From positions 86,676,001 through 86,740,000 of the forward strand of contig NW_025963779.1 of assembly GCF_023055435.1 (NCBI RefSeq): a stretch of 64,000 nucleotides of DNA, read 5' to 3'. The translations under genes and the position numbers were made by a program. A model generated the notes under the pieces. It worked only from the letters and a program-made list of their open reading frames with translations. It ran no database searches and was not told the DNA's origin. Origin of the DNA: Haliotis rufescens. Its lineage: Eukaryota. This document shows, in pieces, positions 1,276-46,199 of the stretch; the stretch's first letter is position 1; each line of letters starts with the position of its first letter.

Positions 1276-1379
1276 GTCTGACATGACGAGCGAGGGGAAC
1301 GGAGGACATTCGAAAAATACAGGTTGTGTGATAGTTTTGACATTGGAGATGAATTCCACTATATTTTCAAATGTGAATA

Positions 1380-4972: not shown

Positions 4973-5764
4973 ATGGAAAAGTCAAAGAACTTGTTTTCCG
5001 AGGCATGCCTGACCAGTGATGTGGCGCTTGTAGTCGAGGGTAAAAAACTGCACGTGAACAAAACAGTACTTTCGCTTGCATCTCCAGTCTTTGAAAAAAT
5101 GTTCTTTGGGGAATTCAAAGAGAAAACCTTATTAGAAGTTCCCCTACCCGGGAAGACATACGACGACATGGTAGAGCTGCTTCTGTGCATTTACCCATCG
5201 ACCACCAATCTGATCACAGCAGACAACATTGACGCACTACTTCCATTAGCGGAGGAATACCTTATGACGTCACTAAAACAACGCTGTCGCACGTTTGTCA
5301 CAACCTACCTGAAACTAAACGTGAAAACTTTATCCAAGTCTCAGCTGGTACATTTCATGCATCTAGCAGACAAATATGACTTTGATGATGTTCTTGAGGA
5401 TTGTCTGACCCAGGCTGTGTACATTGAATACAGTGATGTCAATGGGCTACAACACCAGGAGGGGTTCCAAGATCTCTGCGACAAGACAGCTGTCCAGTTC
5501 TTTAAGCGACGATTGGTGTTGGTGGAGGGACTTGTCAGACCGGTTTTGGAGAGCTCCACCACTGCTTCCGGGAACCTCCAAGAGGACTTCCAGACTATCA
5601 TCAGCGGCAAGTGTAACGAGTTCTCCCACCGCCATGCAAGGCACGAATGTCGAGAATGTAAGGCTGTGTGTTGCGGGCGATGTCGGAAGCTCGGCACTGA
5701 AGCGATGGAAGATTTAGCTCACGTTATCAAGAATATGCTGCCTGCTTTCAAAGAGTCTGAATAG
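4973..5764 (+). CDS. BTB/POZ-domain protein A1 (263 aa) with helical post-BTB region and C-terminal Cys/His cluster
   Basis: BTB motifs SDVALVVEGKKLHVNKTVLSLASPVFEKMF and LLPLAEEY..LKQRC. ATG in gccATGG context 8 nt after a splice acceptor (ctaaactttctcattacag, AG 4963-64). AATAAA near 5850. Confidence 0.88.
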   Translation: MEKSKNLFSEACLTSDVALVVEGKKLHVNKTVLSLASPVFEKMFFGEFKEKTLLEVPLPGKTYDDMVELLLCIYPSTTNLITADNIDALLPLAEEYLMTSLKQRCRTFVTTYLKLNVKTLSKSQLVHFMHLADKYDFDDVLEDCLTQAVYIEYSDVNGLQHQEGFQDLCDKTAVQFFKRRLVLVEGLVRPVLESSTTASGNLQEDFQTIISGKCNEFSHRHARHECRECKAVCCGRCRKLGTEAMEDLAHVIKNMLPAFKESE

Positions 5765-6430
5765 TAATCGTTTTACAAGTCAGACGTACATTTTGATCTT
5801 GGGATGCAGACATTCACAAAAACTGGAGAATGTCAGTTATGAATTGGAGAATAAAACATGTTTCGCCTCAGTCAATAGCACAAAAGCAAAATCAAGGCGA
5901 CCTGTAAATATACGAGACCTGGCCAACCATTGGCTTAACACCGATCAATAGTTTCCATGTACATACTCAAACAGTTGACACCGGATCCTCATTTAAGTCG
6001 TCTTTTACACCAATCCTGTTTATTTGGGACGTCCACAACGAGGACTTTGTTAACGACAAATTGTGGGACACGTGAATGTTGTTAATCCACGTGTATTGTC
6101 ATCGTGCATAATCATCAGTTTGACGGTAGTATGTTTTATATAGTCGTTTACGATGTTTTGACAACTTTATGTTTGATACACGCGTGAATCATATTATACA
6201 TGTATGTATCTGAAAAAGAAATAGGTGTTCTTGTGTTTGTAATATGCCAGGTCAAATGTTGAAATGCTAGCTGTCTTCTAAGCGTCAGCACCATTACCTT
6301 CTAGAACGTTCAGTCTTATATTGTAATGTGTACATGAAATAACAGGACGGCAGTAGTATATAGGCAGTACTTTGGATCTGCGTACACGACTTGTGCCACT
6401 ACGTAGGTGGCATCACATTGAATTATACTA

Positions 6431-6652
6431 CACTGCCGGGCAAAAGAAAATATACTTATGGTTGATGGTGGCTTAATTGAAAAAACAAGAACTGGTTATT
6501 CGATAGTGATGTATTTGATACGGGTATCACAGTTGTGTTTTGTGCCTTAAGTTTGCAGTGTTTCGGCGACTGTTTTCAGCCTAGTAACGTTTTGATAACG
6601 TTTGTAATATTTCGGCAAAATCCATTTTGCAAGTGTCTTTTGCCCGGCAGTT
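6431..6652. mobile_element. Tc1/mariner-type MITE (orthologs 25304-25525 and internally deleted 43212-43305; independent copy 56213-56435)
   Basis: TIR cactgccgggcaaaaga / tcttttgcccggcagtt, flanked by TA. Confidence 0.85.
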
Positions 6653-7469
6653 TACACTAAGCAATAACAACAGTTTAGTTTCACGTTGTATCAGAGACCA
6701 TGTGAGCTATACTTCAGCCCAGGGATGTCATGCAACTAAGTCCTCAGGTCCACATACATATGCCAGAGTTTAACAAATTCGAATAAATCTTGGTTTTTAG
6801 CAGTTCATATCTCTTGTAAATAGAATGTTTGACACATAAATATCAAACGTCAGCGTCAAAGAATAGTCAGCGTCGATTGTCTGAGGAAACAGATTCCTTT
6901 GGGCGTAAAAAGCAAAATCGGTGTGAAAATGATATGAATGGATCACTGTAAATCTGCGATTGCACCAGGTGTTCAGGATATGAACAGTTTTACTGTGACA
7001 GAATCATCTTGTTCAAACAGCCGACGCTACAGCTTCGCAAGGACTCTTTGTGTATGTAATGTATATGTAAAACAAACACCTCACGACATTGGCTATTTAT
7101 AGCGACCTCGTACTAGTGTTGCCATGCTTAAACCTGTATACAGACGAATCAATTGGTATTGAACGGGACACACGTGACACGATCGACGAACGTACTCTTT
7201 AAGTGCATACGTTCAAGAGCAGATAACTCTGAACATTATTCGCCACAGTTTTGATGCAAATTCCACTTCCTGCTGTAAAGTGCCTGGTGTCTGCGTTGTG
7301 GTCTGTGGCCTTGGTGACTGCCTACTCGCTACCCTGCTCAAGAGATACAAGGTTGACGATAGTGAGTATAACATGACAGTGGCCTGGCACCATGTGACTA
7401 GTGTACAATACTGTTCACTGCCGGAGACGCTTCCTCAGTTTTATCCGGAAGTATATTCTATTGTTTTGA

Positions 7470-7639
7470 GGGGCGGTCGGGTAACCTAGTGGTTAAAGCG
7501 TTCGCTCGTCACGCCGAAGACCCTGGTTCGATTCCCGACATGGGTACAATGTGTGAAGCCCATTTCTGGTGTCTCCTGCCGTGATATTGCTGGAATATTG
7601 CTAAAAGCGACGTAAAACCATACTCACTCACTCCTTCAC
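7470..7639 (+). mobile_element. SINE family 1 (orthologs 26244-26412 and 44123-44292)
   Basis: Full length with a 13-bp TSD tctattgttttga. Confidence 0.9.
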
Positions 7640-8747
7640 TCTATTGTTTCGACACCCTGGCGGTTTTTACGGATAAACGGATTCGGATTCTCGTATGCTG
7701 TGTATTCTCAGAAAAAAAACACCATCGGTGGTACATGAGTATACATTACAATACAGTTCCTGAGGCCTAGATAACATACAAGTAGGGATCCTAGACGATT
7801 GCGTAATGTTGCCGTCTGATGAAAAAAAAGAAAACTACTATTAGATCTACCATTAAAAAAGGGTTTGATTCTAAACAAAGTATCAAAATATACACACATT
7901 ACGGGAAAAATTAGTTTCACAGGTGTGAATTAACTGTTAATTGAATAAAACTATTATATCTGTCTGTGACAGCTGGCTTATTCACTCACCTAAAAAAACA
8001 ACGAAAACACATTTAAGTACCGAACTAATGCAGTTAATATTTTCATAAAATATGTTTTCACCTCTGTATACAATAAGAAATAGTATGAATAATGATAAAG
8101 TATTTAAGAATAATGAAAAAACACCAGACTCTGCCCAAACAAGTAAATGGTCCATCAGTGTCTGGAGCTCATGGGCGTCTGCTACACCAAAATATGATAT
8201 TTCCTTACAACTATTAATAAATGACTTGGTCTTCATGATATAGCGGCCCCAGAGAATAGTATTTAGAGTTACATCCCCTCACTTTCTTGACAACTTGTTT
8301 TACAGCAGAAAATAGTTATTGCCTGACGCCGAACATGCAGTCATGCGACAATTCCGAAGTAGATGTCTTGATCAATTTGAGAATGTGCTTTACGAATCTT
8401 GACCCCCCATAATATAAAGCTCAAAGTGTGCTAAGAATACAAATTATGAAAGGTAATACGTCAAATTGTGTGCATCTGTTCAAAAGCCGAAGACAATATT
8501 AGCGGGAAGACATGATTAATAAACAAAAGTCTGTTGTCGTGTGCAACTCAATGCCAACAAACCACTTTTTACCAATATTCAGTCACATTACCTGTCGAGA
8601 TGAGTGTATTTGGCCAAAGCTGAAACGTCAAAAATTCACGAAAAGGAAATTAACTGTCAAAAAACCAACTCTCGGTGGCGCGTATGTGACCGTATGAGAC
8701 CGTCGTCTCATGCTCCTAATATAGAATTTCTTATTACAGAAGCGGCC

Positions 8748-9377
8748 ATGGAAAATTCTGAGAACATGTTTTCCGAGGAATCCCTGACAAGTGATGTGGC
8801 GCTTGTAGTCGAGGACCAAAAGCTGCACGTGAACAAAACGGTACTTTCGCTTGCATCTCCAGTCTTTGAAAAAATGTTCTTTGGGGAGTTCAAAGAGAAA
8901 ACCTTATTAGAAGTTCCGCTACCCGGGAAGATATACGACGACATGGTAGAGCTGCTACTGTGCATCTACCCATCGACCGCCAATCCGGTCACAGTAGACA
9001 ACATTGACGCACTACTTCCACTAGCGGAGGAATATGCAATGATGTCTCTAAAACAACGCTGTCGCAGGTTTGTAAAGACCTACCTGAAACTACACGTGCG
9101 AACTTTATCCAAGTCTCAGCTGGTACATTTCATGCATCTAGCAGACCAATATGACTTTGATGATGTCCTTGAGGATTGTCTAGCTCGGGCTGTGCACATT
9201 GAATACAGTGGCACTAATGGGCTACAACACCAGGAGGAGTTCCAAGATCTCAGTGACAAGGCGGCTGTCCAGTTCTTTAAGCGGCGATTGGTGTTGATGG
9301 AGGGACCTGACAGACCGGTGGTGGCAAAAGCCGCCCCTACTGCGTTTATGAGATACCCAAAACCAGTAGTGAATTGA
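8748..9377 (+). CDS. BTB/POZ protein B1, C-terminally truncated (209 aa)
   Basis: Paralog of A with the same acceptor/ATG arrangement. The ORF is open but lacks the Cys/His tail present in B3. Confidence 0.75.
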   Translation: MENSENMFSEESLTSDVALVVEDQKLHVNKTVLSLASPVFEKMFFGEFKEKTLLEVPLPGKIYDDMVELLLCIYPSTANPVTVDNIDALLPLAEEYAMMSLKQRCRRFVKTYLKLHVRTLSKSQLVHFMHLADQYDFDDVLEDCLARAVHIEYSGTNGLQHQEEFQDLSDKAAVQFFKRRLVLMEGPDRPVVAKAAPTAFMRYPKPVVN

Positions 9378-9789
9378 TGAATGAAGTGTGTTTCGCTGCA
9401 GTCAGTAGCATAATAGCTATATCAAGGCGACCTGTAAATAATCGAGTCCTGGACATGCTCAAACAGTAGACACCGGATCTTAATTTAACTCGTCTCTAAC
9501 AACAATCCTGTGTTACTAGGCACATACACAAGGAGCCATTAAAGACAAATTGTATATACAACTATATAAGTGGTTCTTTGACAATAGATCTGAGTGAAAC
9601 TGTTGACATCGAATATGTTTCAGTTCTCTGTTGCTTATGTACATTAAAAGTTATTTCACAGAACGTCTAATCACAAGGATCACAATGTATGTTAGAACCA
9701 ATTTCCCTTCATCAAGTTTTTTTTTATCTAAGTTACAATCACTTTGCCTTCTCATGTTCAAGATTTTCACAAAGTAAAGGTAAAATTAT

Positions 9790-10262
9790 GTTTTGTTTGT
9801 TTGTTTATTTGTCGTATCTCTGCCTTACTTCAAAACGTCTTTACGTTGATAGATGGGACAAGAAAGGATTTCAGAGAAACTTAGCCTTATTGTTTTGTTT
9901 TGTTTGTTGTTTAACGCCGGACTCAGCAATAGTCCAGCTATATGACGGCAGTCTGTAAATAATCGAGTCAGGACCAGACAATCCAAGGATTGATATCATG
10001 AGTATCGATCCACGCAATTGGGATACGATGACATGCATCAACCAAGTCAGCGAGCCTGACCACCCGATCTCGTTAGTCGCCTCTTACGACAAGCATAATC
10101 GCCTGTTACGGAAAGCATGGGTTGCTGAAGACCTATTCTACCTCGGATCTTCACGGGGTGAGACAAGCATGGGCTGCTGAAGACCTATTCTACCTCGGAT
10201 CTTCACGGGGTGAGACTAGCTTGGGTTGCTGAAGACCTATTCTACCCCAGATCTTCACGTGT
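9790..10262 (-). mobile_element. SINE-like family 2 with three tandem 52-bp heads and a 3' extension (ortholog about 28555-29028)
   Basis: (aaac)n tail, about 70 bp of extension, then a second (aaac)n tail. Confidence 0.8.
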
Positions 10263-10289
10263 TCCTTCTATAATAAGCTGGCTTATGAC

Positions 10290-13200
10290 CAGGCCCCGAT
10301 TTCTCCATAAATTAATTCCATAAACCAGAGGATGCAATGTGTTGATAGCATTGACAGTAAATTAACTATGATTGACAATAAGCTGACATCTCTCGACATT
10401 ACAATGATAGAGACAACACTTCGCGTTGATAAGCTTGAAGCCTGTGTGAGAGAGACTGCATCAGAAAACAAAAAGCTGAAACAACAGGTACGGGAGCTTA
10501 CAGAACAGAGTACCGAGGATCGGGACAGGTTGTCGAGAGATGTAGAAGACGTGTTTTATGACATAGACTCCATATACCAGGAACAGCGAGACCTGAAAGA
10601 ATCTGTTATTGACCTGAAAACACGCTCTATGAGAGATAATCTACTCTTTCACGGGATCCCGGAAATGCCTGGAGAAGAACCTAAAGAGGTAATTAAATGT
10701 TTCTTAAAGAAAGAAATGAAGTGTGACACAGACATTCACCTCTTACGTGTACATAGGATTGGCCCTCACTTATCTAACAGACCACGTACTATAGTTGCAA
10801 AATTTGCAAATCCAGACGAACGGTGGGAAATCCTGACTAACACAAGACAGCTGAGAGAAACGCAATTCGGTGTTAGTGAACAATTTCCTCAAGAGATTGT
10901 GCAGAGACGAAGAGATCTACTCCCCATTTTCAAGGAAGCAAGGAGGCGTGGTTTGAAGTCTAACCTCACTGTAGACAGACTGTATATAGACGGGAGACGT
11001 GTGTACCCAGGAGACGACCCGTTTATAGATCTCACCCCACGAGGCCCTCCCCCCAGCAGGAGATCATACGCGAGTGGCGTCGGTCGGTCAGACAACAGAC
11101 AACCCAACAAGATGGCCAGGACTGGGGACACGGGAGAAAACAGGCCGCGGTAGGAGAATAACCGAGGTCAGCAAACCCGTGAGTCGCCTAACAGTGAAAA
11201 CGTAACTTCCCACGAGAAACTTAAGATACTGTCTCTTAATGTGTGTGGTATTAGGACAAAGCTGTTGAACCCCGATTTTGTGAACGATGTGTCCAGATAC
11301 GATATACTGTGTCTGACTGAAACTAAAACGTGTGATTTAGATGCTGTAAACATCCCAGGATTCTCAGTTCATATGAATAACAGAACTAACGCACAGAACA
11401 CACGTGTATCTGGCGGGATCATTGTAGCCATCAAAGAGACACTATTTGACAAGGTGAGCGTCATCGAAAAGATACATGATATTGTTTTATGGTGTAAGAT
11501 ACCAAGTGATTACCTGCATGTTAACGATGACCTTATCCTAGGAACTGTCTATATACCACCAGAGCAAAGTAGATTTCATTCACCGGAAATATTTACAACA
11601 CTAGAAAATGATATCATTCGTATGTCAAACTGCTCACAGTACATGTGTATTGTTGGTGATATGAATTGTCGTACTAAAAATCTTCCGGATTTTATCATTT
11701 TGGACGAATTTTTATGTGACAATGATATTATTGACGAGGAATTATTGTTTTCAAATGTACAACTTCTAGTTGACAACGGTGTAAAATTAGATAGAATATC
11801 AATGGATACTGAAACAAACTGTAACGGGTATAAACTCCTGGATTTATGTAAAAATAACCGGCTGTATATTGTGAATGGAAGATTAGGCAAAGACAAGGGT
11901 ATTGGTAAACTGACATGCAGAAATGCCAGTGTTGTCGATTATTGTATTGCATCAGCAGAAACATTCCCATTATTAATAGATTTTGAGGTGCAGGAGTTTG
12001 ACCCGATCTCGTCCGATGCACACTGTGGCTTATCGTAAACGTTAGATTGTACAGCACAACAACTATCTCCAGTTATAGATGATGACAAAGATGTACATTA
12101 CATAAAGTTGTAAAAAGATGGGTTCCTGATAAAAGTGAAACATTTTTATGTAATATCGATAAGGTTGCCATTACCCATCAGTGTACAGAATTAGATGCAT
12201 GTAAAGACCAATTAGAGCCAAATGACATTAACCAAATTGTAAATAAACTCTCTCAGACGCTGGTTACTGCGGCTGCAACTACTCTAGGTACTGTAAGAAA
12301 TTCGAGACACTCTGTACATAAGCACAAGCATAAACCCTGGTTTGATGAAAAATGTAAATCATACGTAGATTTTACCACAAGCGTAAACGTATATATGGAA
12401 GGACTAAAGACAGTAATAGCAAAGCTATGTACATTTCAGCTAGTAGAGCTTATAGTAAAACCCTAAAGAAGGCATTTAAGACATATCAAAACAAATGTGT
12501 CCAACAACTGAGGGAATGTAAGGATAGTAACCCTAAGAATTTTTGGGAAATTTTAAAATCATTTGAACCAAAGAAAACAGCAGAAATAATCAGTATTGAC
12601 AAATTTTTCGAATTTTTTAAAGACCTTAATCAAAGTTCTGATGATAATGACGATGTTTTTGCCAATAACACATATTATGATAATCATGATGATATCTTAG
12701 ATTGTAGGATTACAGAAGAAGAAATTATATGGGTTGGATGGTATTTACAATGAGTACATTAAAAGCTCTATTCATGTTATGATGCCGGTTTACGTGAGTT
12801 TTTTAACCTCGTTTTTGACACTGGAGTTTTACCTGAAGCTTGGTTTGTTGGCAAAATAAAAACAATCTACAAAAACAAAGGAAACCAAGCTGACCCAGAC
12901 AATTACAGAGGTATTTCTATCCTAAGCTGTTTAGGTAAATTGTTCACTACACTATTGAATAATCGTTTACAAGCTTACTCAGTTCAGACTAATCTGATAA
13001 GCGAAGCGCAAGCAGGATTTAGGAAAAAATACTCAACAATTGACAATATGTTTATTCTTAAAGCTCTCATTGATATCTATAGAAATCTTAATAAGAAGTT
13101 GTATTGTGTTTTCGTCGATTTTAGCAAAGCTTTCGATACAGTATGGTGGTGTGGTCTGTGGACAAAAATGATAAAGTCTAATATCAAAGGAAAATGTTTT

Positions 13201-14334
13201 AATGTCATATATAATATGTATCAAAATATCAAATCTTGTGTTTCTCGATTCTTCATGTTGTTAAAGAATATGTTTACCTTGGTATTTTATTTACAAACAC
13301 TGGTAGATTCTGTAAGGCACTAAAGAGACTGACAGATCAGGCATCTAGAGCAATGTACGCTGTATTTCGTAAAATTAGAATATTAGAAATTCCTATTGAC
13401 TGTCAACTGAAATTATTTGATTAACTTGTTCAGCCTGTATTGTTATATGGATCTGAGGTGTGGGGTTTTGAAAATGCTGTTTTCATTGAACGTGTACATC
13501 TTAAATTTTGTAAATATATTCTCAAGTTAAAACAGTCAACACCCGATTACATGGTATATGGTGAACTAGGGAGGTATCCTCTCAGCATTTTCATTAAGAT
13601 GAAAATGATTTCATATTGGTGCAAGCTAACATCATCACAAACTAGCCTTTCTAGTATAGTGTATAAACTTATGTTTCAAATGTCCATTGCAAATCCAGAT
13701 TACCATTTCCCACTATTAAAAGAAGTAAAATGCATTCTTCAAAATATAGGCTTTAATTACATTTGGCTGTCTCAAACCTTTATTAGTGCCGCATGGTTGA
13801 AACAAAATGTGAAACATGTTCTCATTGATAATTTTCTGCAAAGATGGCGAGAATCAAAGGAAAATTCATCTAAAGGTTACTATTATAACATGTTTAAAGA
13901 GTTACCATCTCTAGAACCTTATTTAATAGAACTACCAATCACCCTACGTATCTCTCTTGCTCGTTTTAGAACAGCAAATCATAGATTACCTATTGAAACA
14001 GGAAGATGGTATAATATTGTGAGAGAGGAAAGAAAATGTACATTGTGTAAAATTTATGTGATGAAATGCACTTTTTATTAGAATATCCAAAACTCTCAGA
14101 AATTAGAAACAAGTTTTTGCCTCAATACTACTGTATGTATCCTTCTGCCGTAAAATTCTCCCATTTGATGTCCATAACTTATAAGCCATTTCTATTAAAA
14201 CTGGCAAGTTAATTATATAAGATCATGTATGGAAATGTTCCACTGACATGTTTTCTTCATTGTATCTAATTCCTGTGTCCAATTACATCTCTGTATCACT
14301 GAAGTGATTTACGAGAATAAACATCATTCATTCA
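10290..14334 (+). mobile_element. Defective non-LTR retrotransposon (LINE with APE and RT; CR1/RTE-X-like, clade unverified), 5'-truncated at the duplication junction
   Basis: ORF1 10332-11153 has a coiled coil plus the L1-type RRM motif SMRDNLLFHGIPE. APE motifs KILSLNVCG, LCLTET, VGDMN, SDAH. RT motif FVDFSKAFD. C-terminal RFRTANHRLPIETGRW..CTLC. Tail aataaacatcattcattc. Carries stops, frameshifts and a deletion of about 370 bp at 13246 that removes YADD. Confidence 0.92.
10332..11153 (+). CDS. LINE ORF1 protein (likely N-terminally truncated)
   Basis: Heptad-rich N-terminus followed by RRM-like NLLFHGIPE, HRIG, RPRTIVAKF and EQFP motifs. Confidence 0.75.
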   Translation: MQCVDSIDSKLTMIDNKLTSLDITMIETTLRVDKLEACVRETASENKKLKQQVRELTEQSTEDRDRLSRDVEDVFYDIDSIYQEQRDLKESVIDLKTRSMRDNLLFHGIPEMPGEEPKEVIKCFLKKEMKCDTDIHLLRVHRIGPHLSNRPRTIVAKFANPDERWEILTNTRQLRETQFGVSEQFPQEIVQRRRDLLPIFKEARRRGLKSNLTVDRLYIDGRRVYPGDDPFIDLTPRGPPPSRRSYASGVGRSDNRQPNKMARTGDTGENRPR

Positions 14335-14605
14335 GCAACAGTCCTGGTGTTAGGATCTCAGTAACGGTGGCGCCAGGTACGACTGGAGGGCAAAACATTC
14401 GTACAATGAGATTTTTTGCATGTTTGTTTTGCCGATGTATAATTACTGTTTCTTGTGGTGCATACGTGCAGTTCGTTGTATGTTGATACAGTATACTGTC
14501 GTGATTGTCAAGACCCAGGCTCGTGGCCCGTCCTCGCTATACAGCCTTAGAACATGAAGCCGTGCCGTCCAACGGCTAATGGAGGCTAGATTAGATTCTG
14601 CCCCT

Positions 14606-15500
14606 GTATACAGCTCCTACAACCTGGAGCAGGTTGCCACTCCCCCTTTATACAGCTCCTACAACCTGGAGCAGGTTGCCACATCCCCTTTATACAGCTC
14701 CTATAACTTGGAGCAGGTTGCCACTCCCCCTTTATACAGCTCCTACAACCTGGAGCAGGTTGCCACTCCCCCTTTATACAGCTCCTATAACCTGGAGCAG
14801 GTTGCCACTCCCCCTTTATACAGCTCCTATAACTTGGAGCAGGTTGCCACTCCCCCTTTATACAGCTCAAAACATCTAGAGCCGGTTTCCACGTCACCTG
14901 TTATACAGCTCCTACTACCTGGAGCAGGTTGCCACACCCCCTTTATACAGCTCCTACAACCTGGAGCAGGTTGCCACTCCCCCTTTATACAGCTCCTACA
15001 ACCTGGAGCAAGTTGCCACTACCCCTTTATACAGCTCCTATAACTTGGAGCAGGTTGCCACTCCCCCTTTATACAGCTCCTACAACCTGGAGCAGGTTGC
15101 CACTCCCCCTTTATACAGCTCCTATAACTTGGAGCAGGTTGCCACTCCCCCTTTATACAGCTCAAAACACCTAGAGCCGGTTTCCACGTCACCTGTTATA
15201 CAGCTCCTACTACCTGGAGCAGGTTGCCACTCCCCCTTTATACAGCTCCTATAACTTGGAGCAGGTTGCCACTCCCCCTTTATACAGCTCAAAACACCTA
15301 GAGCCGGTTTCCACACACCTGTTATACAGCTCCTACTACCTGGAGCAGGTTGCCACTCCCCCTTTATACAGCTCAAAACACCTAGAGCCGGTTTCCACAC
15401 ACCTGTTATACAGCTCCTACTACCTGGAGCAGGTTGCCACTCCCCCTTTATACAGCTCAAAACACCTAGAGCCGATTTCCACACACCCTTTATACAGCTC
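14606..15500. repeat. 42-bp minisatellite (ortholog 33781-34385)
   Basis: tatacagctcctacaacctggagcaggttgccactccccctt, in four unit variants. Confidence 0.95.
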
Positions 15501-15717
15501 ATCCAACATAGATCAGGCTACCCAGGGTTGCCACACACCCTTACACGATTTTATGCGACCAAAACGTCTTCACCGCCCACAGAACCTAACAGTAATGATT
15601 TCCGTATTCCCCTTTTAGATTTGCCGTAGAATGGTTTTGGTTGTCCAGACTGTTGTCCCCTTTCAACCATCAGTGTAACCTGGACCAGAATATCCCACGA
15701 TTTCTGCTCTATACCGC

Positions 15718-16290
15718 TCATCGAACCTAGATCCTGGCTGCACCTCCTCCCCCTTCACCCCTCATAGAGCCTAGATCCAGGCTGCACCCCCTCTCCCTTC
15801 ACCCCGCATAGAGCCTAGATCTAGGCTGCACCCCCTCTCCCTTCACCCCTCATAGAGCCTAGATGCAGGCTGCACCCCCCCTCCCTTCACCCCTCATAGA
15901 GCCTAGATCTAGGCTCCACCCCCTCTCCCTTCACCCCTCATAGAGCCTAGATGCAGGCTGCACCCCCTCCCCCTTCACCCCTCATAGAGCCTAGATCCAG
16001 GCTGCAACCCCTCTCCCTTCACCCCTCATAGAGCCTAGATCTAGGCTGCACCCCCTCTCCCTTCACCCCTCATAGAGCCTAGATCAAGGCTGCACCCCCC
16101 CCCCCCCCCCTTCACCCCTGACAGCTTAGATCAAGGCTGCACCCCCTCCCCCTTCACCCCTCATAGAGCCTAGATCCAGGCTGCACCCCCTTTCACCCCT
16201 CATAGAGCCTAGATCCTGGTTGCACCCCATTCTCCTCCCCCTTCACCCCTCTTAGAGCCTAGATACATGCTGCACCCCCTCCCCCTTCCG
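15718..16290. repeat. 44-bp C-rich minisatellite (deleted in copy Z)
   Basis: tcatagagcctagatccaggctgcaccccctctcccttcacccc. Confidence 0.95.
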
Positions 16291-17267: not shown

Positions 17268-17419
17268 GGCAGTGGGGTAGCCTGGTGGCTGAAGCGTAAG
17301 ATCGTCACGCCGAAGTCCTGGGGCTCGATTTGCCACATGGGTACAGTATGTGAATTCCATGCCAGGTGTGATATTGCTGGAATATTCCTAAAAGCGGCGT
17401 AAAACCATACGCACTCACT
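17268..17419 (+). mobile_element. SINE family 1, diverged (ortholog 35202-35356)
   Basis: Head and tail recognisable. Confidence 0.8.
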
Positions 17420-36470: not shown

Positions 36471-36753
36471 GTGAGTGAGTGAGTGAGTTGGGTTTAACGC
36501 CGCTTTTAACAGTATTCCAGTCATATCGCGGCGTGTCAGCTTAATGTGGGAGGAAAGCCCGAAGTGATGCAGGTCTCAGACGTTTACCACTTCGGTGAAA
36601 CCCACGAGCACGGGTATGGTGCTGACAAACCTAGAAACATAATCGGGGCGAACCGGGATTCGAACCCACAATCATAGGTTTCTGGCGTGTCCAGGGACGC
36701 AACTCTGCACAGCGAATCGCGGCGCCTTAGACGACTGGGCCACCCGTGCCCCC
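36471..36753 (-). mobile_element. tRNA(Leu/Ser-like)-headed SINE, family 3 (partial ortholog at 1-113)
   Basis: Perfect 13-bp TSD aaatcgtgtttga (36458-70 and 36754-66). A box tggcccagtcgtctaaggcg, B box ggttcgaatccc, (actc)n tail. Empty site at about 18504. Confidence 0.92.
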
Positions 36754-39700
36754 AAATCGTGTTTGAAAACGTGTAGTTTGGGAAGATAAGCCATGTGGGG
36801 TCCGTCTCTACATATGAAGTTGACAGTGACAACCAGGACAAGGTGTTGAGTGAGTTAGTGGGTGGGCTGGTGAGTGGGTGAGTGAGTGAGTGAGTGAGTG
36901 AGTGAGTGAGTGGGTGGGCTGGTGAGTGAGTGGGTTCGGCTGGTGAGTGAGTGAGTGGGTGGGCTGGTGAGTGAGTGAGTGGGCGGGCTGGTGAGTGAGA
37001 GAGTGGGCTGGTGAGTGAGTGAGTGAATGAGTGAGTGAGGTGTAAGGACGTTTTCGACAATATTTCAGTTATATCACGGCGACTCAGCTTAATGTGGGAG
37101 GTACACCCGAAGTGATGCAGGTCGTAGATGTTCATTGCCTTGGTCAAACCCACGAACATGAGTATCGTGTCGACAAACCTAGAAACCTAATCATGGCGAA
37201 TCGGGGTGTGCAACCAGTGATCAAAGGTTTTACGAAGGCCTCTGCACATCGAATTGGCCTATGATCACGGGTATGGTGCTGTAAATTATTATTTAAATGC
37301 GTTCAGAAGAAACTAAAGATAACTCATACCTTATTAATTACACTAATATATGAAGGTCGGTTATTATAATCTACTAAACAATACAGTGTAGTCCAACATG
37401 TATTTGGGTGACTGTGAACAGTACAAACCGCTACGAGCGTGGGGAAATGCACGGAACGCCAGCATGGGTCTTGCTCTGTGCATAAAACATAAGATTGTGT
37501 AGTGAGCGTGTTCTTGCTGCACCTGTGCAAGGGTTTTCTCTTCTTGTTGGTGGAGTGGTCGAGTGACAACTTCTCTTCCTTCTACACTGTTCTTGTGAAA
37601 TATTAAAAACTCTTCTTGTTTTCGCTTTCCGTATACACAACACTTCCTGACATGAGAGAGGACGAGTTATTGTCTTGTGAGTGAGCAATGTTTTACGCCC
37701 TTGAACGGTATTTCATTTACTTCAGGGCGTGCCAGCTTTATGTGGGAGAAAACCCCAGGTGATGACTGTTACTAATTGGGTGAAACCCACCAACTCGGGC
37801 ATGGAGCTGGCACACCCAGAAACATGATCAGGGTCCATTTTGGGTTCCAACCCACGATCTTATGTTTCTGACAGAACTCTGCCTAGCGCCTCAAACGACT
37901 GGGCCGCTCGTAACACCTGTCTGACATGACGAGCGAGGGGAACGGAGGACATTCGAAAAATACAGGTTGTGTGATAGTTTTGACATTGGAGATGAATTCC
38001 ACTATATTTTCAAATGTGAATAGGGGCGGTCGGGTAGCCTAGTGGCTAAAGCGCCGTCGTCACGCCGAAGACCCGGGTTCAATTCCCGACATGAGTGCTA
38101 TGTGTGAAGCCCATATCTGGTGTCTGATATTGCTAAAAGCGGCGTTAAACCATACTCACTCACTCACTCAAATGTAAATATTTCAATGAACAAAGGGACA
38201 TGTACATCCCAAAACACTATTTAAAAAGGCCAAATATGTTACAACTCCAGCAATTATTTGTCATAAGATATCTGTCCAAAACAAACTATGTAAATTTATT
38301 AACATTATAATGAAAATTGTAAAAAACTCCCAGTTAACCTCTGTCCACCGCAATGTAAAATACTGTTTGTACCTTGTATGCCGATGCGCTCGGCCTGAGA
38401 GAAATAAAGTGCTGTTCTGTGGTATTCTGGAGCACTTTGTGTCCTCCATATTTCGTCAACTCCGGCTGAATGATATCACAAGTTGTACTTCTTACAGCGC
38501 GGATATCTTCCCTCACCTATACAAACCGAACACCTATATACCAGTAGTTGTGTGAAAATTGATGTGTATAATTTTAACACGAACATTTTGTACAACTATC
38601 AAGTGAGGGAATAGATTTTAATCTGTCATCGACTGTTTACGGGGTGCTGGAGCAAGCAAACCAGTGGTTGATAGTGTGAGAGTCAAACTGCACACTCAGC
38701 CTTCCATAAAAGTGCACATTCTTCCTTGATATCCACGTACAGTAAACTACGGTTATAACGAAATCAAAGGCCAGACATTTTAGTTCGTTACAAGCGTAGT
38801 TCGTTATAAGAATATACACAGCATACATATAACAAATGGTCGGGACCAAACAATACGTTCGTCATCATAGGTTCCTTTAAGAGCGTGTTCGTTATGAACA
38901 TAGTTTACAGTAACTGCATCTACCCGGTGGACACAAATGGACAACAACAGGCAGATTTAAGCCTTGCAACGTTTTCCTATCGTTTGTAATTTGTTGGTCA
39001 AATCCAGTTTTCAAGGGACCATTTTCTTTTGTCCAGCAGTTCACATAAATCAATAACAGTAGTTCAGATTCATGTGGCACCAAAGACGATCTCAGCTTTA
39101 GTTCACCCCAGTGGTGTCAAAGGTATATTATAGTCCCCGGTCCATATACATAGGAGTTTCACGCCGCACTTAGCAATATTCCAGCTATTTGACGGCGGTC
39201 TGTAAATAATCGACCTAATAATGGACCTAATTGCTACTATATCAGAGGAATGGCTCACTGCAGCGATTGTTTGTTTGTTCATTTCTTGAAAGGATTTCAG
39301 AGAAACTGTTGTTGTGTGTTTTGTTTGTTGTTTAACGCAATATTCCAGCCATATGAAGGCGGTCTGTAGAAATAATCGAATCTGGGCCAGACAATCCAGT
39401 GATTGGCATCATGATCATCGATCCACGCAGTTTGGATACGATGATATGTATCAACCAAGTCAGCGAGTCTGACCACCCGATCCTGTTAGTCGCCTCTTAC
39501 GACAAGCTCGTCACCACTTGGCTGAAAATGATGCCGATGTGACGTTACATTTTAACCCACTCACTCACTCTCACCACAAGGAAAGTCGCTTTTTACGGCA
39601 GGCATGGGTTGCTGAAGACCCATTCTAACCCGTATCTTCACCGGTATGTTTCGAAGAGAAATATAAGCCAGTTTTGATATAACAGAATCATCTTGTTCAA

Positions 39701-40618
39701 ACAACCAACGTTACAGCTACGTGTGGACTCGGTATGTATGTTATCAATGTGGACAACAAACCCCGCATGGCGTGGGCTATTTATAACCACCCGTTCTCGT
39801 GTCCGCACACTCAAACATTTTACAGACGATTTACTGAGTATTGAATGGAACAAAGTTTTTTGTTAAAAAAGTAAATGCATACATTAACAACGATGTTTGT
39901 TTCATTGGAATAATACTTTTGAAAACATAACACGACTGGTGTTTGAAAACGGCGAGTTGGTTATTTCAAAAGTCAAACGTTGTTTGCACGTAGAGATCGA
40001 TTTAGCGCCTGACTCATATCAAGAGCACATAACTCTACACAATATTCGCAAGTGTTGATTCAATTATTCGGTAGAGCTCCTGCTAGCTGTACAAAGCCAG
40101 TGTTCCCTCCGTTGGATTTAGCAATGTTGTCTTATATTAAAATATATAATACACCAAGCCGTTAAGGGTAACCATATCTAATCAAGGACTGATTGAAATA
40201 GGAAGCTGAAGGCGCAACGTGTATAGTACGTCGGCGATGAAGACTACGTTGTGCCTACGTTGTGTCGACGTTGTATCGACGTTGTGCCTACGTTGTGTCG
40301 ACGTTGTGCCCACGTGCTACGCTGTAGTCTCGGTGACTGCCCACCCGCTGACTGACAGTACTCGGAGGGCCACCCTGCCGAAGAGACTCAAGGTAGACGA
40401 TAGAACACACAGTGAGTATAACATGACAGTTGACCAACACCATGTGACAGTGGACAATACTGTTCACTGCCGGAGACGATTCTCGGTTTTATCCGGGTGT
40501 ATATTCTTTACACAGGCCACTATCGTGTCTCACAGTTCACAGTTACTTTGTATGAAGACACTACAGTCTGTATCTCCATGTACTTTTATAGTAGCTGTCA
40601 CTTCAGTGTGTGAAATCA

Positions 40619-40991
40619 TTTGTAACCAAAATTTTATTGAGGACGAATATCATTTTGTGCTTATATGCAATGCTTATAGTGATTTAAGAGCTGAAAACAT
40701 TCCTCCTAAATATTTTACAACCCCTTCTAAAAATAAATTTAATGCTCTTATGTCATCCACTAACTTTAAAATCATACGAAATCTAGCAGTCTACGTTTAC
40801 AAAGCTTTTCGACTTCGGTCATTACAAACAGTCTAAATATTTATTTGTATATATGCATGCGTATGTGTATAAATGTGTATGGATATGGATATATATGTAA
40901 AATACTGGTAATTCTTTTTTCTCCCTCTCTCTGTAAATAGTTCTGTGTAATAGGCCTACGGCCTAACACTTTTTGTGAATAAAACAATTAC
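40619..40991 (+). mobile_element. Same LINE 3' fragment in copy Z
   Basis: Orthologous to 3832-4204. Confidence 0.85.
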
Positions 40992-41752
40992 AATACACTC
41001 GATTGTCACTGACAGTAGTTCACAGGGTATCGGATGCCATTTATGTTTTAATGCATAGTAAACGTTACAGCTACACCATCTTCCCGAGTCAAGGAAGTTA
41101 ACTGACTATAAAAGTCCAGTTTCCACCCTCGCCGAACTAGGCTGAAATTATGGAGTTATATTTTAGTCGATTGCAGGATTTGTAAAGCATGTGTACAGCC
41201 AACTCGGGGTCAACAGCTATTTTCCAAATCTTTTCAAGTTTTTAATCATGGTACTCATGTCATTTGATGCACTTCGCGATGTAAGCCCCGTTTTATCACA
41301 ATATACATTTGATTATCGATCAGATTATTTCGACTGGCGCCGTCATTTTGTTTGAAGCAAACGCAAGTGATATAAGAGGTGGAATCTGATTGGTTAATAG
41401 GAGGGTTATAGAAGGAACGTAACTCGTAATAGCCACTGGTGGCGCAACGATCGAGAAATGCCACTCTAGTTCGGCGAGGGTAGGTTTTTACAGTCTGTTG
41501 ACACCTTGCTTCGGGAGGAAGCAGCTACACATGTAATGTGCATATAAATAAATGTAAATGTACAAAAAACAAACAAACTGTTATTTGGTGATTATTTCAA
41601 AGATTATTTTGTCAGTCATTGAATAATTCGTCGTGGATAGGGTCTTGGAGAAAGTCTGAAGTCATCGCTGCGCTTTGTTTCACGACAAGAACACGGAGCT
41701 GTGCAAAAGAAAGTTTCAAATGTTTCTAAACTTTCTCATTACAGAAGCGGCC

Positions 41753-42544
41753 ATGGAAAAGTCAAAGAACATGTTTTCCGAGGCATGCCTGACCAGTGAT
41801 GTGGCGCTTGTAGTCGAGGGTAAACAGCTGCACGTGAACAAAACAGTACTTTCGATTGCATCACCAGTCTTTGAAAAAATGTTCTTTGGGGAATTCAAAG
41901 AGAAAACCTTATTAGAAGTTCCCCTACCCGGGAAGACATACGACGACATGGTAGAGCTGCTTCTGTGCATTTACCCATCGACCACCAATCCGATCACAGC
42001 AGACAACATTGACGCACTACTTCCATTAGCGGAGGAATACCTTATGACGTCACTAAAACAACGCTGTCGCACGTTTGTCACAACCTCCCTGAAACTAAAC
42101 GTGAAAACTTTATCTAAGTCTCAGCTGGTACATTTCATGCATCTAGCAGACAAATATGACTTTGATGATGTTCTTGAGGATTGTCTGAGCCAGGCTGTGT
42201 ACATTGAATACAGTGATGTCAATGGGCTACAACACCAGGAGGGGTTCCAAGATCTCTGCGACAAGACAGCTGTCCAGTTCTTTAAGCGACGATTGGTGTT
42301 GGTGGAGGGACTTGTCAGACCGGTTTTGGAGAGCTCCACCACTGCTTCCGGGAACCTCCAAGAGGACTTCCAGACTATCATCAGCGGCAAGTGTAACGAG
42401 TTCTCCCACCGCCATGCAAGGCACGAATGTCGAGAATGTAAGGCTGTGTGTTGCGGGCGATGTCGGAAGCTCGGCACTGAAGCGATGGAAGATTTAGCTC
42501 ACGTTATCAAGAATATGCTGCCTGCTTTCAAAGAGTCTGAATAG
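41753..42544 (+). CDS. BTB/POZ protein A3 (263 aa)
   Basis: Near-identical to A1 and A2. ORF intact. Confidence 0.88.
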   Translation: MEKSKNMFSEACLTSDVALVVEGKQLHVNKTVLSIASPVFEKMFFGEFKEKTLLEVPLPGKTYDDMVELLLCIYPSTTNPITADNIDALLPLAEEYLMTSLKQRCRTFVTTSLKLNVKTLSKSQLVHFMHLADKYDFDDVLEDCLSQAVYIEYSDVNGLQHQEGFQDLCDKTAVQFFKRRLVLVEGLVRPVLESSTTASGNLQEDFQTIISGKCNEFSHRHARHECRECKAVCCGRCRKLGTEAMEDLAHVIKNMLPAFKESE

Positions 42545-45401
42545 TAATCGTTTTACAAGTGAGACGTACATTTTGATCTTAGGATACGGATATTCACCAA
42601 AAAATTTAGAATATCAGTAATGAATTGGAGAATAAATCATGTTTCGCCTCAGTCAATAGCACAAAAGCAAAATCAAGGCGACCTGTAAATAAACGAGACC
42701 TGGCCAACCATTGGCTTAACACCGATCCATAGTTCCCATGTACATACTCAAACAGTTGACACAGGATCCTCATTAAATCGGCTTTTACAACAATCCTGTT
42801 TATTTGTGACGTACACAACGAGGACTTTGTTAAAGACAAATTGTGGGACGTGTGAATGTTGTTAATACTCGTGTATTGTCATCGTGCATAATCATCAGTT
42901 TGACGGCAGTATGTTTTATATAGTCGTTTACGATGTTTTGAGAACTTTATGTTTGATACACGCGTGAATCATATTATACATGTATTTAACTGAAAAAAGA
43001 AATAGGTGCTCTTGTTTTTGTAACATGCCAGGTCAAATGTTAAAATGCTAGCTGTCTTCAAAGCTTCAGTACCATTACCTTCTAGAACGTTCAGTCTTAT
43101 ATTGTAATGTGTACATGAAATAACAGGACGGCAGTAGTATATAGGCAGTACTTTGGATTTGTGTACACGACTGGTGCCACTACGTCGGTGGCATCACATT
43201 GAATTATACTACACTGCCGGGCAAAAGAAAGTATACTTATGGTTGATGGTGGCTTAATTAAAAAAACAAGAAATCCATTTTGCGAGTGTCTTTTGCCCGG
43301 CAGTTTACACTAAGCAATAACAACAGTTTAGTTTCACGTTGTATCAGAGACCATGTGAGCTATACTTCAGCCCAGGGATGTCATGCAACTAAGTCCTCAG
43401 GTCCACATACATATGCCAGAGTTTAACAAATTCGAATAAATCTTGGTTTTTAGCAGTTTATATCTCTTGTAAATAGAATGTTTGACACTTAAATATCAAA
43501 CGTCAGCGTCAAAGAATAGTCAGCGTCGATTGTCTGAGGAAACAGATTCCTTTGGGCGTAAAAAGCAAAATCGGTGTGAAAATGATATGAATGGATCACT
43601 GTAAATCTGCGATTGCACCAGGTGTTCAGGATATGAACAGTTTTACTGTGACAGAATCATCTTGTTCAAACAGCCGACGCTACAGTTTCGCAAGGACTCT
43701 TTGTGTATGTAATGTATATGTAAAACAAACACCTCACGACATTGGTTATTTATAGCGACCTCGTACTAGTGTTGCCATGCTTAAACCTGTAAACAGACGA
43801 ATCAATTGGTATTGAACGGGACACACGTGACACGATCGACGAACGTACTCTTTAAGTGCATACGTTCAAGAGCAGATAACTCTGAACATTATTCGCCACA
43901 GTTTTGATGCAAATTCCGCTTCCTGCTGTAAAGTGCCTGGTGTCTGCGTTGTGGTCTGTGGCCTTGGTGACTGCCTACTCGCTACCCTGCTCAAGAGATA
44001 CAAGGTTGACGATAGTGAGTATAACATGACAGTGGCCTGGCACCATGTGACTAGTGTACAATACTGTTCACTGCCGGAGACGCTTCCTCAGTTTTATCCG
44101 GAAGTATATTCTATTGTTTTGAGGGGCGGTTGGGTAACCTAGTGGTTAAAGCGTTCGCTCGTCACGCCGAAGACCCGGGTTCGATTCCCGACATGGGTAC
44201 AATGTGTGAAACCCATTTCTGGTGTCCCCTGCCGTGATATTGCTGGAATAATGCTAAAAGCGGCGTAAAACCATACTCATTCACTCACTCACTCTATTGT
44301 TTTGACACCCTGGCGGTTTCTATGGATAAACGGATTCGGATTCTCGTATCTCGGAGTTTCTCAGAAAAAAACAACATCGGTGGTACATTAGTATACATTA
44401 CAATACAGTTCCTAAGGCCTAAATAACATACAAGTAGGGATCCTAGACGATTGCGTAATGTCGCCGTCTGATGAATAAAAAGAAAACTACTATTAGATCT
44501 ACCATTAAAAAAGGTTTGATTCTAAACAAAGTATCAAAATATACACACATTACGGGGAAAATTAGTTTCACAGGTGTGAATTAACTGTTAATCGAATAAA
44601 ACTATTATATCTGTCTGTGACAGCTGGCTTATTCACTCACCTAAAACAACAACGAAAACACATTTAAGTACCGAACTAATGCAGTTAATTATTTCATAAA
44701 ATATGTTTTCACCTCAGTATACAATAAGAAATAGTTTGAATAATGATAAAGTATTGTTTTAAGAATAATGAAAAAACACCAGACTCTGCCCAAACAAGTA
44801 AATGGTCCACCAGTGTGTGGAGCTCATGGGCGTCTGCTACACCAAAATATGATATTTCCTTACAACTATTAATGAATGACTTGGTCTTCATGATATAGCG
44901 GCCCCAGAGAATAGTATTTAGAGTTGTATCCCCCTCACTTTCTTGACAACTTATTTTACAGTAGTAAATAGTTATTGCTTGACGCCGAACATGCAGTCAT
45001 GCGACAATTCCGAAATAGATGTCTTGATCAATTTGAGAATGTGCTTTACAAATCTTGACCCTCATAACATAAAGCTCAAAGTGTGCTAAGAATACAAATT
45101 ATGAAAGGTAATACGTCAAATTGTGTGCATCTGTTCAAAAGCCGAAGACAATATTAGCGGGAAGCCTTGATTAATAAACAAAAGTCCGTTGTCGTGTGCA
45201 ACTCAATGCCAACAAACCACATTTTACCAATATTCAGTCACATTACCCGTCGAGATGAGTGTATTTGGCCAAAACTGAAACGTAAAAAAATCACGAAAGG
45301 AAATTAACTGTCCGAAAACTAACTCTCAGTGGCGCGTATGTGATCGTATGACACCGTCGTCTCATGCTCCTAATATACAATTTCTTATTACAGAAGCGGT
45401 C

Positions 45402-46199
45402 ATGGAAAATTCTGAGAACATGTTTTCCGAGGAATCCCTGACAAGTGATGTGGTGCTTGTAGTCGAGGGCCAAAAGCTGCACGTGAACAAAACGGTACTT
45501 TCGATTGCATCTCCAGTCTTTGAAAAAATGTTCTTTGGGGAATTCAAAGAGAAAACCTCATTAGAAGTTCCCCTACCCGGGAAGACATACGACGACATGG
45601 TAGAGCTGCTTCTGTGCATCTACCCATCGACCGCCAATCCGGTCACAGTAGACAACATTGACGCACTACTTCCACTAGCGGAGGAATATGCTATGACGTC
45701 TCTGAAACAACGCTGTCGCACGTTTTTCACAACCTACCTGAAAGTAAACGTGGAAAGTTTAGCAAAGTCTCAGCTGGTACATTTCATGCATCTAGCAGAC
45801 AAATATGACTTTGATGATGTCCTTGAGGGTTGTCTAGCTCGGGCTGTGCACATTGAATACAGTGGCACCAATGGGCTACAACACCAGGAGGAGTTCCATG
45901 ATCTCAGTGAAAAGGCGGCTGTCCAGTTCTTTAAGCGGCGATTGGTGTTGGTGGAGGGACTTTTCAGAACGGTGTTGGAAAAAACCACCAATCCTTCTGG
46001 AAAGCTTCACGATGACTTACAGGCTATCATCGGTGACAAATGTAAGCCGAAGTCATACGTGTTCCCTCATAGCAAGCATAAATGTGGAAAATGTGGAGCT
46101 GCGTGTTGCAGGGGATGTCGGGAGCTCGGCACTAGAGCTATAAACGATTTGGCTCATGTTATCCCGGAAATGCTGTCTGCTTTCGAAAAGTGTAAATAG
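45402..46199 (+). CDS. BTB/POZ protein B3, full length (265 aa) with Cys/His tail
   Basis: B-type N-terminus (MENSENMFSEES) and C-terminal CKPKSYVFPHSKHKCGKCGAACCRGC. Confidence 0.88.
   Translation: MENSENMFSEESLTSDVVLVVEGQKLHVNKTVLSIASPVFEKMFFGEFKEKTSLEVPLPGKTYDDMVELLLCIYPSTANPVTVDNIDALLPLAEEYAMTSLKQRCRTFFTTYLKVNVESLAKSQLVHFMHLADKYDFDDVLEGCLARAVHIEYSGTNGLQHQEEFHDLSEKAAVQFFKRRLVLVEGLFRTVLEKTTNPSGKLHDDLQAIIGDKCKPKSYVFPHSKHKCGKCGAACCRGCRELGTRAINDLAHVIPEMLSAFEKCK

Follow-up and report, generated by a model that had tools for sequence, protein, structure and literature searches.

A tandem array of twelve likely Cul3-adaptor BTB genes in Haliotis rufescens, with a conserved tail in one class and probable positive selection on the intact tails of the other

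What do the paired BTB genes of this abalone locus do, and why would one class keep its Cys/His tail nearly unchanged while the other alters or loses it? We examined a window of 64,000 nt from Haliotis rufescens, to which all positions below refer. The reading that we favor, and hold with moderate confidence, is that of a BTB array of twelve likely Cul3 adaptors in which the A tail is conserved, the intact B tails are likely positively selected, and the B copies without a tail are probably passengers free of selection.

The initial annotation described six BTB ORFs on the + strand in the order A, B, A, B, A, B. The order stands, but the array is larger: 12 intact BTB ORFs in six (A,B) units form a ~93-kb tandem array, half of which lies upstream of the window together with six of the ORFs (G000:C1:86629453-86667484). 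By repeat comparison, units U4–U6, the downstream half of this six-unit tandem segmental duplication, occupy 1..47454 (+ strand, like every feature below), and the array starts ~54 kb upstream of the window. The window ORFs sit in an ~18-kb segmental repeat whose copies are 92–98% identical. Across the array there are six A copies with a conserved tail, two intact B copies (B2 and B6), and four tail-less B copies (B1, B3, B4, and B5), which gives three intact tail types in the assembly (A, B2, and B6) rather than the two specificities first envisaged. A tandem, lineage-specific expansion with truncated members, as in birth-death adaptor families, is what we find (12 copies, four truncated), and the paralogue count supports the birth-death expansion proposed earlier. 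Other abalones yielded two distinct proteins (H. rubra) or one each (H. asinina and H. cracherodii) in a retrieval limited by annotation. In the flanks, Pfam matched 2 of 48 open frames, neither related, and a scan found no tRNA genes.

Could some of the copies have arisen in assembly, from two haplotypes joined end to end, which would make the expansion smaller? Two observations fit this possibility: a 17.3-kb block shared by units 3 and 5 has 98.9% identity, and the A3 and A5 proteins are identical. The remaining unit pairs, however, are 2–8% different with distinct indels, and the depths of contigs from DNA run X4 (238 for A, 156 for the deletion junction, 32 for B2-type, and 49 for B6-type) fit ~6:4:1:1, although by the tool's own warning such depth is no copy number. 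We consider this explanation very improbable.

The first A copy of the window, A4 (4973..5764; A1 in the initial annotation), encodes 263 residues comprising a BTB domain, a helical BACK-like part, and a Cys/His tail, as judged from the ORF, Pfam, and the model; contigs of putative RNA runs ("RNA?" below) cover its ORF and tail. B4 (8748..9377) and B5 (27517..28146), recognized by ORF and alignment, are the two window B copies without a tail, as had been noted, at 209 residues each; the phi-x-E motif is intact in B4, and B5 carries E47K and E50K, the motif changing from FKE to FKK at 27658-27666. A5 (23845..24636; ORF and alignment) and A6 (41753..42544; ORF) are 263-residue A copies. B6 (45402..46199; ORF, alignment, and contigs) has 265 residues, an intact divergent tail (45966-46196), and no LINE behind it.

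The description of these genes as single-exon ORFs holds for the coding part but not for the gene, to which an upstream exon is spliced. The 3′ parts of these exons lie at 3582..3624 for A4 (mostly untranslated; GT donor at 3625), 7307..7361 for B4 (donor at 7362), and 43960..44014 for B6 (donor at 44015), placed by tblastn with the RefSeq-model N terminus and the donor motif and, for B6, by a contig of run X16. The GT donor is 1.3–1.4 kb upstream (exact motif in five of the six window genes) and the AG acceptor 8 nt before the ATG (5 nt in A5). The X16 contig joins donor and acceptor, its loose end before 45394 being the last letters of the B6 upstream exon, and the match of a contig in run X18 begins at the A4 acceptor (4965), preceded by 63 letters from elsewhere. 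We take the "RNA?" runs as RNA because of the splice-joined contigs and the zero depth over 1601-2000 and 11201-12000; otherwise, their status is a guess. Spliced transcript contigs include tails of both the A and the intact B type, which bears out expression of these classes. Transcript contigs were present in all four "RNA?" runs compared, from three studies, runs that were picked because they contain the gene, with tissues and treatments off record, and that were seen as contigs rather than raw reads. Among the contigs listed for X16 and X17, the two "RNA?" runs compared with B6, none crossed the tail-less junction, which is not evidence of silence.

The upstream copies appear in RefSeq as "BTB and MATH domain-containing protein 36/38-like" (P0001 is A2; P0045, A1; P0004, B2; P0050, B1). 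In Haliotis this label rests on similarity, and the array proteins have no MATH domain: none matched, even with E limits of 1 and 10, and the BTB begins at about residue 10, so we reject a MATH-BTB identity. In the mostly open-access article texts searched under this label, we came upon no account of the array or its tail.

Are these proteins Cul3 adaptors, as was suggested? The BTB itself is secure: Pfam BTB/POZ (PF00651) matched all three window proteins scanned at 81–87 bits against a cut-off of 20.5 (E 1e-24 to 7e-23). An AF2 model of A4 (mean pLDDT 86) has SPOP as its top structural match (Z 14.0; rmsd 3.9; 173 aligned), with vaccinia A55 BTB-BACK (Z 13.7) and KLHL3 (Z 13.5; rmsd 3.1; 165 aligned) close by; these matches span residues 4–190, and the best 30 Foldseek rows are all BTB-BACK or Cul3-adaptor entries. 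The predicted helices at 122–134, 138–148, and 170–195 (pLDDT >90) superpose on SPOP, KLHL3, and A55 to residue ~186–190. The helical 3-box/BACK region is thus present by predicted fold only, and Pfam found no BACK match in residues 109–189. A predicted phi-x-E Cul3-binding motif, F48-K49-E50 (5114..5122 in A4), aligns with M83-S84-E85 of KLHL3, between α3 and β4 where it is expected; 10 of the 12 copies keep it unchanged (B3 and B5 have FKK), and among homologues its F is kept in 87 of 91 and its E in 86 of 91. In KLHL3, E85A abolished measurable Cul3 binding (PMC3616122), and not all BTB domains bind Cul3 (PMC4431850). The source genome encodes a Cul3. The predicted fold and the motif together make it likely that the array proteins are Cul3 substrate adaptors of BTB-BACK type, their binding being predicted.

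As in SPOP, KLHL3, KLHL11, and KBTBD2, helices that superpose on BACK/3-box (Z 12–14) come after the BTB, and phi-x-E is in register. Unlike SPOP- or KLHL3-type adaptors, the array proteins have neither MATH nor Kelch (Pfam finds BTB only), their sole candidate substrate end is a ~75-residue helical hairpin with a Cys/His loop, and their genes are tandem, with one coding exon and only ~14 residues before the first BTB strand. In whole-protein searches, ESM Atlas returned unnamed BTB clusters only.

The A-type tail (residues 189–263; 5537..5761 in A4), assigned by model and conservation, is predicted to be a helical hairpin tipped by a C-x6-H-x2-H-x-C-x2-C-x3-CC-x2-C loop. Its structure is predicted with little confidence: pLDDT is <50 for residues 213–228 of the A4 model, and the tail folded alone gave pLDDT 59.6 and pTM 0.32, with generic helical hairpins as best structural match (Z 5.7), a result that is uninformative as to a known or a new fold. 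A search of ESM Atlas with the tail alone gave no usable match. The loop has weak FYVE-like Pfam similarity in A, B6, and H. rubra (E 0.002–0.01) and none in B2 or the H. cracherodii protein. It resembles the central H-x-C-x2-C-x4-C-x2-C part of the FYVE zinc finger but lacks the flanking Cys pairs of that finger and its basic lipid-binding motif, a FYVE feature; we set a FYVE finger (PF01363) aside, at 16–18.5 bits against a cut-off of 27.8 and over profile positions 13–46 of 67. CxxC occurs after residue 170 in 31 of 85 non-array homologues of 215–312 residues, from which this unannotated Cys/His tail architecture may be widespread in invertebrates.

The tail was earlier called variable and fast-evolving, and this is where A and B part. 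A tails are near-identical in all six copies (three variable sites in 225 nt) and strongly conserved across abalones, in H. rubra and H. asinina, so the description fails for A; B tails do vary and bear signs of positive selection. A and intact B tails are 48–51% identical, as divergent as had been claimed, and the BTB domains, said to be almost identical, have 83–93% amino-acid identity in the six A–B pairs computed. With the protein of H. rubra or of H. asinina as the outgroup, the tail has 0 changes unique to A4 and 31–33 unique to B2 or B6 (p<1e-9), against 2 and 1–6, respectively, in the BTB. Further, A and B share 7–10 tail residues against the outgroups and none is unique to A, for which reason A and B fit as sisters.

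The conservation of the BTB was observed, but part of the similarity is due to gene conversion. A2 and B2 are identical over nt 301–419 (permutation p 0.0004, best of six pairs tested); in all, one of the six pairs was strongly significant, two were marginal (p 0.03 and 0.04), and three were not significant. The neutral A–B branch is 0.28 in the BTB part versus 0.93 in the tail. The BTB is therefore partly homogenized by conversion.

The tests of positive selection concern B only and its two intact sequences; four were significant and the count test within the tail was not. B2–B6 tail nonsynonymous differences (25/175) exceed those of the intron (55/1216; p 5e-6) and the 3′ flank (41/586; p 0.005), and BTB nonsynonymous differences (8/230) do not differ from the intron; as neutral standards, introns and UTRs are imperfect. 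Codon-level analysis by domain, which had been proposed, gave a divided answer. A custom three-sequence codon model returned an omega of 3.1 for the B2 and B6 tips from the tail only (p 0.046) and of 3.6 when tail and BTB were given common branch lengths (p 0.0006), the stronger test being one whose shared-branch assumption is broken by conversion. The within-tail dN/dS count test of B2–B6 was not significant (p 0.25).

It could be argued that there is no positive selection here, that B tails descend from an older paralogue and have drifted as constraint relaxed, and that conversion of the BTB makes the tail look fast by comparison. Per 4-fold site, A–B differences in the tail (5–6/16) are indeed some three times those in the BTB part (7–10/71–80), the synonymous counts of the two regions differ (p 0.001–0.015), tail omega on the long A–B branch is ~1, and the BTB and tail trees disagree; the count test just cited points the same way. 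Against this, B2–B6 tail synonymous divergence is intron-like (3.5/50; 2/22 at 4-fold sites) and the nonsynonymous is three times higher, the loops of B2 and B6 keep 8/8 Cys/His versus 3–4 of 18 other loop positions (p<0.001), and the tail residues common to A and B, with none unique to A, fit sister lineages. We regard drift as unlikely, although the outgroup comparison is at protein level and the B tail may be of older origin. Were drift correct, the locus would be a segmental duplication of the usual sort and would illustrate well how conversion can mimic domain-specific selection.

All four tail-less B copies share one ~263-nt net deletion and one LINE insertion, and the LINE lies behind these four copies only. 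In B4 the junction is near 9336-9364, fusing codon ~196 to former 3′ UTR. By ORFs and Pfam, the window holds two copies of this non-LTR retrotransposon, at 10332..14081 (a 273-residue ORF1 and an endonuclease/RT frame in pieces) and 29098..33420 (RT domain, E 8.6e-28; frame in pieces). The deletion is old, since DNA runs X4 and X6, from organisms A and B respectively, both carry it but differ in their junction letters. A loss of AATAAA in these copies was set aside as a signal; a downstream ATTAAA is kept and fits the contig ends.

The initial annotation saw in these copies truncated heterodimer or decoy forms, within a pathogen-sensing cassette where they would be selected decoys or dominant-negative partners. 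Their four ORFs remain open, the deletion is old, three of them have RefSeq models, B1 and B4, whose phi-x-E is intact, could titrate Cul3, and nematode BTB, MATH, and F-box expansions are infection-responsive (PMC4063957 and 10.1101/2022.03.10.483751). We find no sign of selection, however: of 26 private changes in the tail-less lineages, 19 are nonsynonymous, as neutrality would predict (p 0.82). Because the private changes of the A copies have a neutral appearance as well (12/17 nonsynonymous), the case for unselected status from this count is weak. The decoy idea is further weakened by the loss of the motif Glu in two of the four (E47K and E50K in B3 and B5) and by the model. BTB homodimers are usually built through an N-terminal strand and helix; in the monomer model residues 1–16 are coil, with no helix before the first BTB strand, and structural alignments start late there, which makes heterodimers doubtful. 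We judge the decoy scheme quite unlikely and keep to passengers carried along in unit duplication.

What, then, might drive the intact B tails? The contrast of fast B and frozen A tails, beside the four copies that lost theirs, suggests a possible evolutionary arms race. The BTB and following helices would dock on the Cul3 N terminus, and the hairpin with its Cys/His loop, likely held by zinc, would be the substrate-binding end. A may serve a fixed substrate at raised gene dose, and B may sample new substrate surfaces against a changing target; purely by analogy, the likeliest such target is a pathogen protein. Copy number would change through unequal crossing-over of the ~15–19-kb unit, and conversion would keep the Cul3-binding half alike.

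Alternatively, the changing target could be one of the animal's own proteins, from the germline, the gametes, or a selfish element. Rapid evolution is known for abalone gamete proteins, and meiosis and spermiogenesis both involve Cul3-BTB adaptors. The maize protein MAB1, from an expanded MATH-BTB clade, acts at the meiosis–mitosis transition (PMC4091423), and the rate data are silent on the driver. On the other side, the transcript contigs come from all four "RNA?" runs in three studies, selected as described above. A self target seems to us rather improbable, about as much so as selected decoys. If B tails do track pathogen proteins, the locus offers a small, tractable setting in which to ask about ubiquitin-adaptor arms races in molluscs, so far proposed for nematodes and plants; frozen A and fast B, whose BTB domains are nearly the same, would be its built-in control, and it might yield a useful marker for a genus that is farmed and hit by disease.

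Nematode MATH-BTB and F-box genes, in work attributed to Thomas in 2006, are said to form birth-death families. As described in PMC4063957 and 10.1101/2022.03.10.483751, they resemble the array in tandem lineage-specific copies, copy loss, and truncation and in a conserved cullin-binding half beside a fast-changing other half; they differ in that the variable module there is MATH, FTH, or FBA, here a Cys/His tail, and that copies number hundreds, against 12 in abalone. Moreover, abalone class A has hardly changed within the genus, and it is the sister class B that diversifies. Expanded-clade MATH-BTB clusters of grasses likewise form tandem arrays interspersed with transposons and include truncated, BTB-only, and pseudogene members, but have plant MATH-BTB architecture and no Cys/His tail (PMC4091423). 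The array thus follows the known birth-death adaptor pattern, with a different tail module and a frozen-A/fast-B split.

A wider proposal is that molluscs own variable intracellular receptors: minimal Cul3 adaptors with an undescribed zinc-tipped hairpin, a frozen A class, a diversifying, haplotype-variable B class, a conversion-homogenized BTB, and tail-less copies as tuners, by which pathogen proteins would be degraded. We think it unlikely in this full form. A further tail type, absent from the assembly, is present in runs X16 and X6.

The six BTB ORFs of the initial annotation were all recovered at the positions claimed for them in the window (G000:C1:86676001-86740000, in a 1.33-Gb genome). 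With units numbered along the chromosome, its three pairs are A4/B4, A5/B5 and A6/B6, with ATGs at 4973, 8748, 23845, 27517, 41753 and 45402, respectively. These pairs belong to a larger array, whose ~18-kb unit recurs at 92–98% identity in a self-comparison of the window. A genome search returned 35 matches, 12 of them close copies (75–100% identity to A4) and the remainder no more than 51% identical. The six upstream members (loci L002, L004, L006, L007, L010 and L012; G000:C1:86629453-86667484) begin, relative to the window, at -46547 (A1), -42802 (B1), -27453 (A2), -23702 (B2), -12778 (A3) and -9106 (B3). The array starts ~54 kb upstream of the window, as judged from 13 flanking stretches, and the flanks examined (100 kb upstream, 30 kb downstream) contain no additional copies. 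All 12 copies have open frames. The description of the genes as single-exon holds for their coding part, but an upstream exon precedes each ATG, followed by a 1.3–1.4-kb intron that ends just before it. Among labelled proteins, Haliotis rufescens entries named "BTB and MATH domain-containing protein 36/38-like" come closest, some of them identical to upstream copies; the array genes already carry automatic annotation. A Pfam profile search found no MATH domain in the array proteins scanned.

An AlphaFold2 model built from 91 sequences (pLDDT 86) consists of a BTB core, helices at 122–134, 138–148 and 170–195, and a last helix at 235–259, with segment 213–228 poorly modelled. Its top structural matches (Foldseek, VIA-align) are the BTB-BACK proteins SPOP, KLHL3, KBTBD2, KLHL11 and vaccinia A55, with Z of 12–14 over residues 4–190. 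The phi-x-E motif, F48-K49-E50, aligns with M83-S84-E85 of KLHL3, and its F and E are conserved in 87 and 86 of the 91 aligned homologues. The KLHL3 E85A mutant loses measurable Cul3 binding (PMC3616122). The same genome encodes Cul3. BTB proteins have a usual dimer mode; it is uncertain here because the model has no helix ahead of the first BTB strand. Between two helices, the tail bears the pattern C-x6(8)-H-x2-H-x-C-x2-C-x3-C-C-x2-C, which suggests that this loop may bind zinc. FYVE identity was considered and rejected, as the likeness is sub-threshold and confined to the middle of FYVE. Among other homologues, P0128, P0168 and further distant proteins also have a BTB domain and helices followed by a similar CxxC-x4-CxxC tail, and a CxxC occurs beyond residue 170 in 31 of 85 non-array homologues of 215–312 aa.

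A and B proteins are 83–93% identical in the BTB domain, 78–87% in the helical part and 48–51% in the tail. The variable tail initially ascribed to the whole family does not describe the A copies, whose tail is frozen: it has 3 variable sites in 225 nt across six copies versus 25 in 564 for the remainder (p 0.03), and 60–62 of its 75 residues (23–24 of 26 in the loop) match those of H. rubra and H. asinina. With these species as outgroups, no tail change is unique to A4 versus 31–33 unique to B2 or B6; the corresponding BTB counts are 2 and 1–6. A protein of H. cracherodii has a further tail type, with 28–29 unique changes, which is missing from the assembly. Between B2 and B6, nonsynonymous change in the tail (25/175) exceeds change in the intron (55/1216, p 5e-6) and 3' flank (41/586, p 0.005), whereas that in the BTB part (8/230) is not above intron. 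In a three-sequence codon model, omega on the two B tips is 3.1 (p 0.046) and rises to 3.6 (p 0.0006) when branch lengths are shared; a plain within-tail count test of B2–B6 is not significant (p 0.25).

Drift plus conversion could have produced this pattern instead of selection on the B tails. The tail also exceeds the BTB part threefold in synonymous A–B divergence, which counts against a simple selection reading. One upstream pair, A2 and B2, shows no difference over nt 301–419 (permutation p 0.0004, best of six pairs), and four polymorphisms are common to the A and B groups. Gene conversion thus accounts for part of the conserved BTB domain. Retention of the Cys/His residues in both B tails (8/8, versus 3–4 of 18 other loop residues) argues against their decay, and we regard drift plus conversion as unlikely. 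That the B tails have a germline target is a less probable proposal still, overlapping in part with the other readings.

Among the B copies, only B2 and B6 retain a full tail; the other four, B1, B3, B4 and B5, end at 209 aa. These four share a single net deletion of ~263 nt that takes out the tail and stop codon, so that they read through 11–13 codons of the former 3' UTR. A copy of one LINE, its RT frame broken, lies behind each of the four and behind neither B2 nor B6, and the tail-less copies form one clade (97/96). Together, these features indicate a single tail loss, then amplification through unit duplication. DNA run X4 (organism A) contains the deletion junction, and so does X6 (organism B), with minor sequence differences; the deletion is therefore neither an assembly error nor recent. 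That the array is partly an assembly artefact seems very improbable. An immune cassette with the tail-less copies as selected decoys, a reading that partly overlaps others, is also rather improbable. Private changes on the tail-less lineages (7 synonymous, 19 nonsynonymous) match the neutral share (p 0.82), although this test does not separate them from the A copies, whose ratio is similar (5:12). B3 and B5 carry E47K and E50K.

We think it reasonably probable, though far from assured, that the array encodes minimal Cul3 adaptors with a conserved A, an exploring B and passenger tail-less copies. The BTB domain and helices would dock on Cul3, and the hairpin and Cys/His loop would hold substrate. 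A would retain an old substrate at raised gene dose, while B, released by duplication, may try new surfaces on a constant Cys/His frame. Units would turn over through unequal crossing-over and conversion, keeping the Cul3-binding half alike, with the tail-less copies as probable riders on unit duplication. The array itself, the deletion, the motif, the predicted fold, the rate differences and the transcripts rest on observation; Cul3 and zinc binding, the substrates and whatever drives selection are inferred. In its workings the array would resemble the BTB adaptor expansions of nematodes and grasses (PMC4063957, 10.1101/2022.03.10.483751, PMC4091423); in contrast to those, its proteins are not MATH-BTB. 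Searches of a mostly open-access literature collection turned up no account of the array or tail.

Four presumed RNA runs yield contigs over the A ORF and its tail, with zero depth in control stretches. One contig of run X18 starts exactly at the acceptor, and one of X16 links the B upstream exon to it. X16 also contains B2-like and B6-like tails, the latter with several B2 letters. A further X16 contig, aligned to window 45883-46355, is unlike A, B2 and B6 by difference counts and has a similar counterpart in X6; these counts hint at a fourth tail type absent from the assembly, perhaps like that of H. cracherodii. Contig depths of 238:156:32:49 in X4 fit 6:4:1:1, and those in X6 (168:60:34:31:31) suggest a different make-up, although such depths are not copy numbers.

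Elsewhere in the genome, related single-coding-exon BTB genes form small clusters (L014-L018, L023 and L024 on contigs C388 and C24, L020-L021 on C46, L025-L029 on C79), several differing in Cys/His tails (e.g. L014 versus L015), which suggests the conserved-BTB/variable-tail pattern there too. Downstream of the array, the nearest other gene observed encodes a SOUL heme-binding protein and is represented by an exon (window 58503-58868, plus strand; Pfam E 8.9e-9), followed by a DDE_3 transposase fragment (63009-63365, plus strand). Minisatellites occupy 49325-51143 (121 bp), 59198-59955 (51 bp), 47046-47454 (52 bp) and 14601-15507 (42 bp); the last sits inside the repeated units, differs in length among them (~3 kb in unit 2) and yields spurious ORFs. 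The region upstream of A5, like that of A3, contains an 844-bp tandem duplication (21092-21934 and 21930-22773, 99.8% identical).
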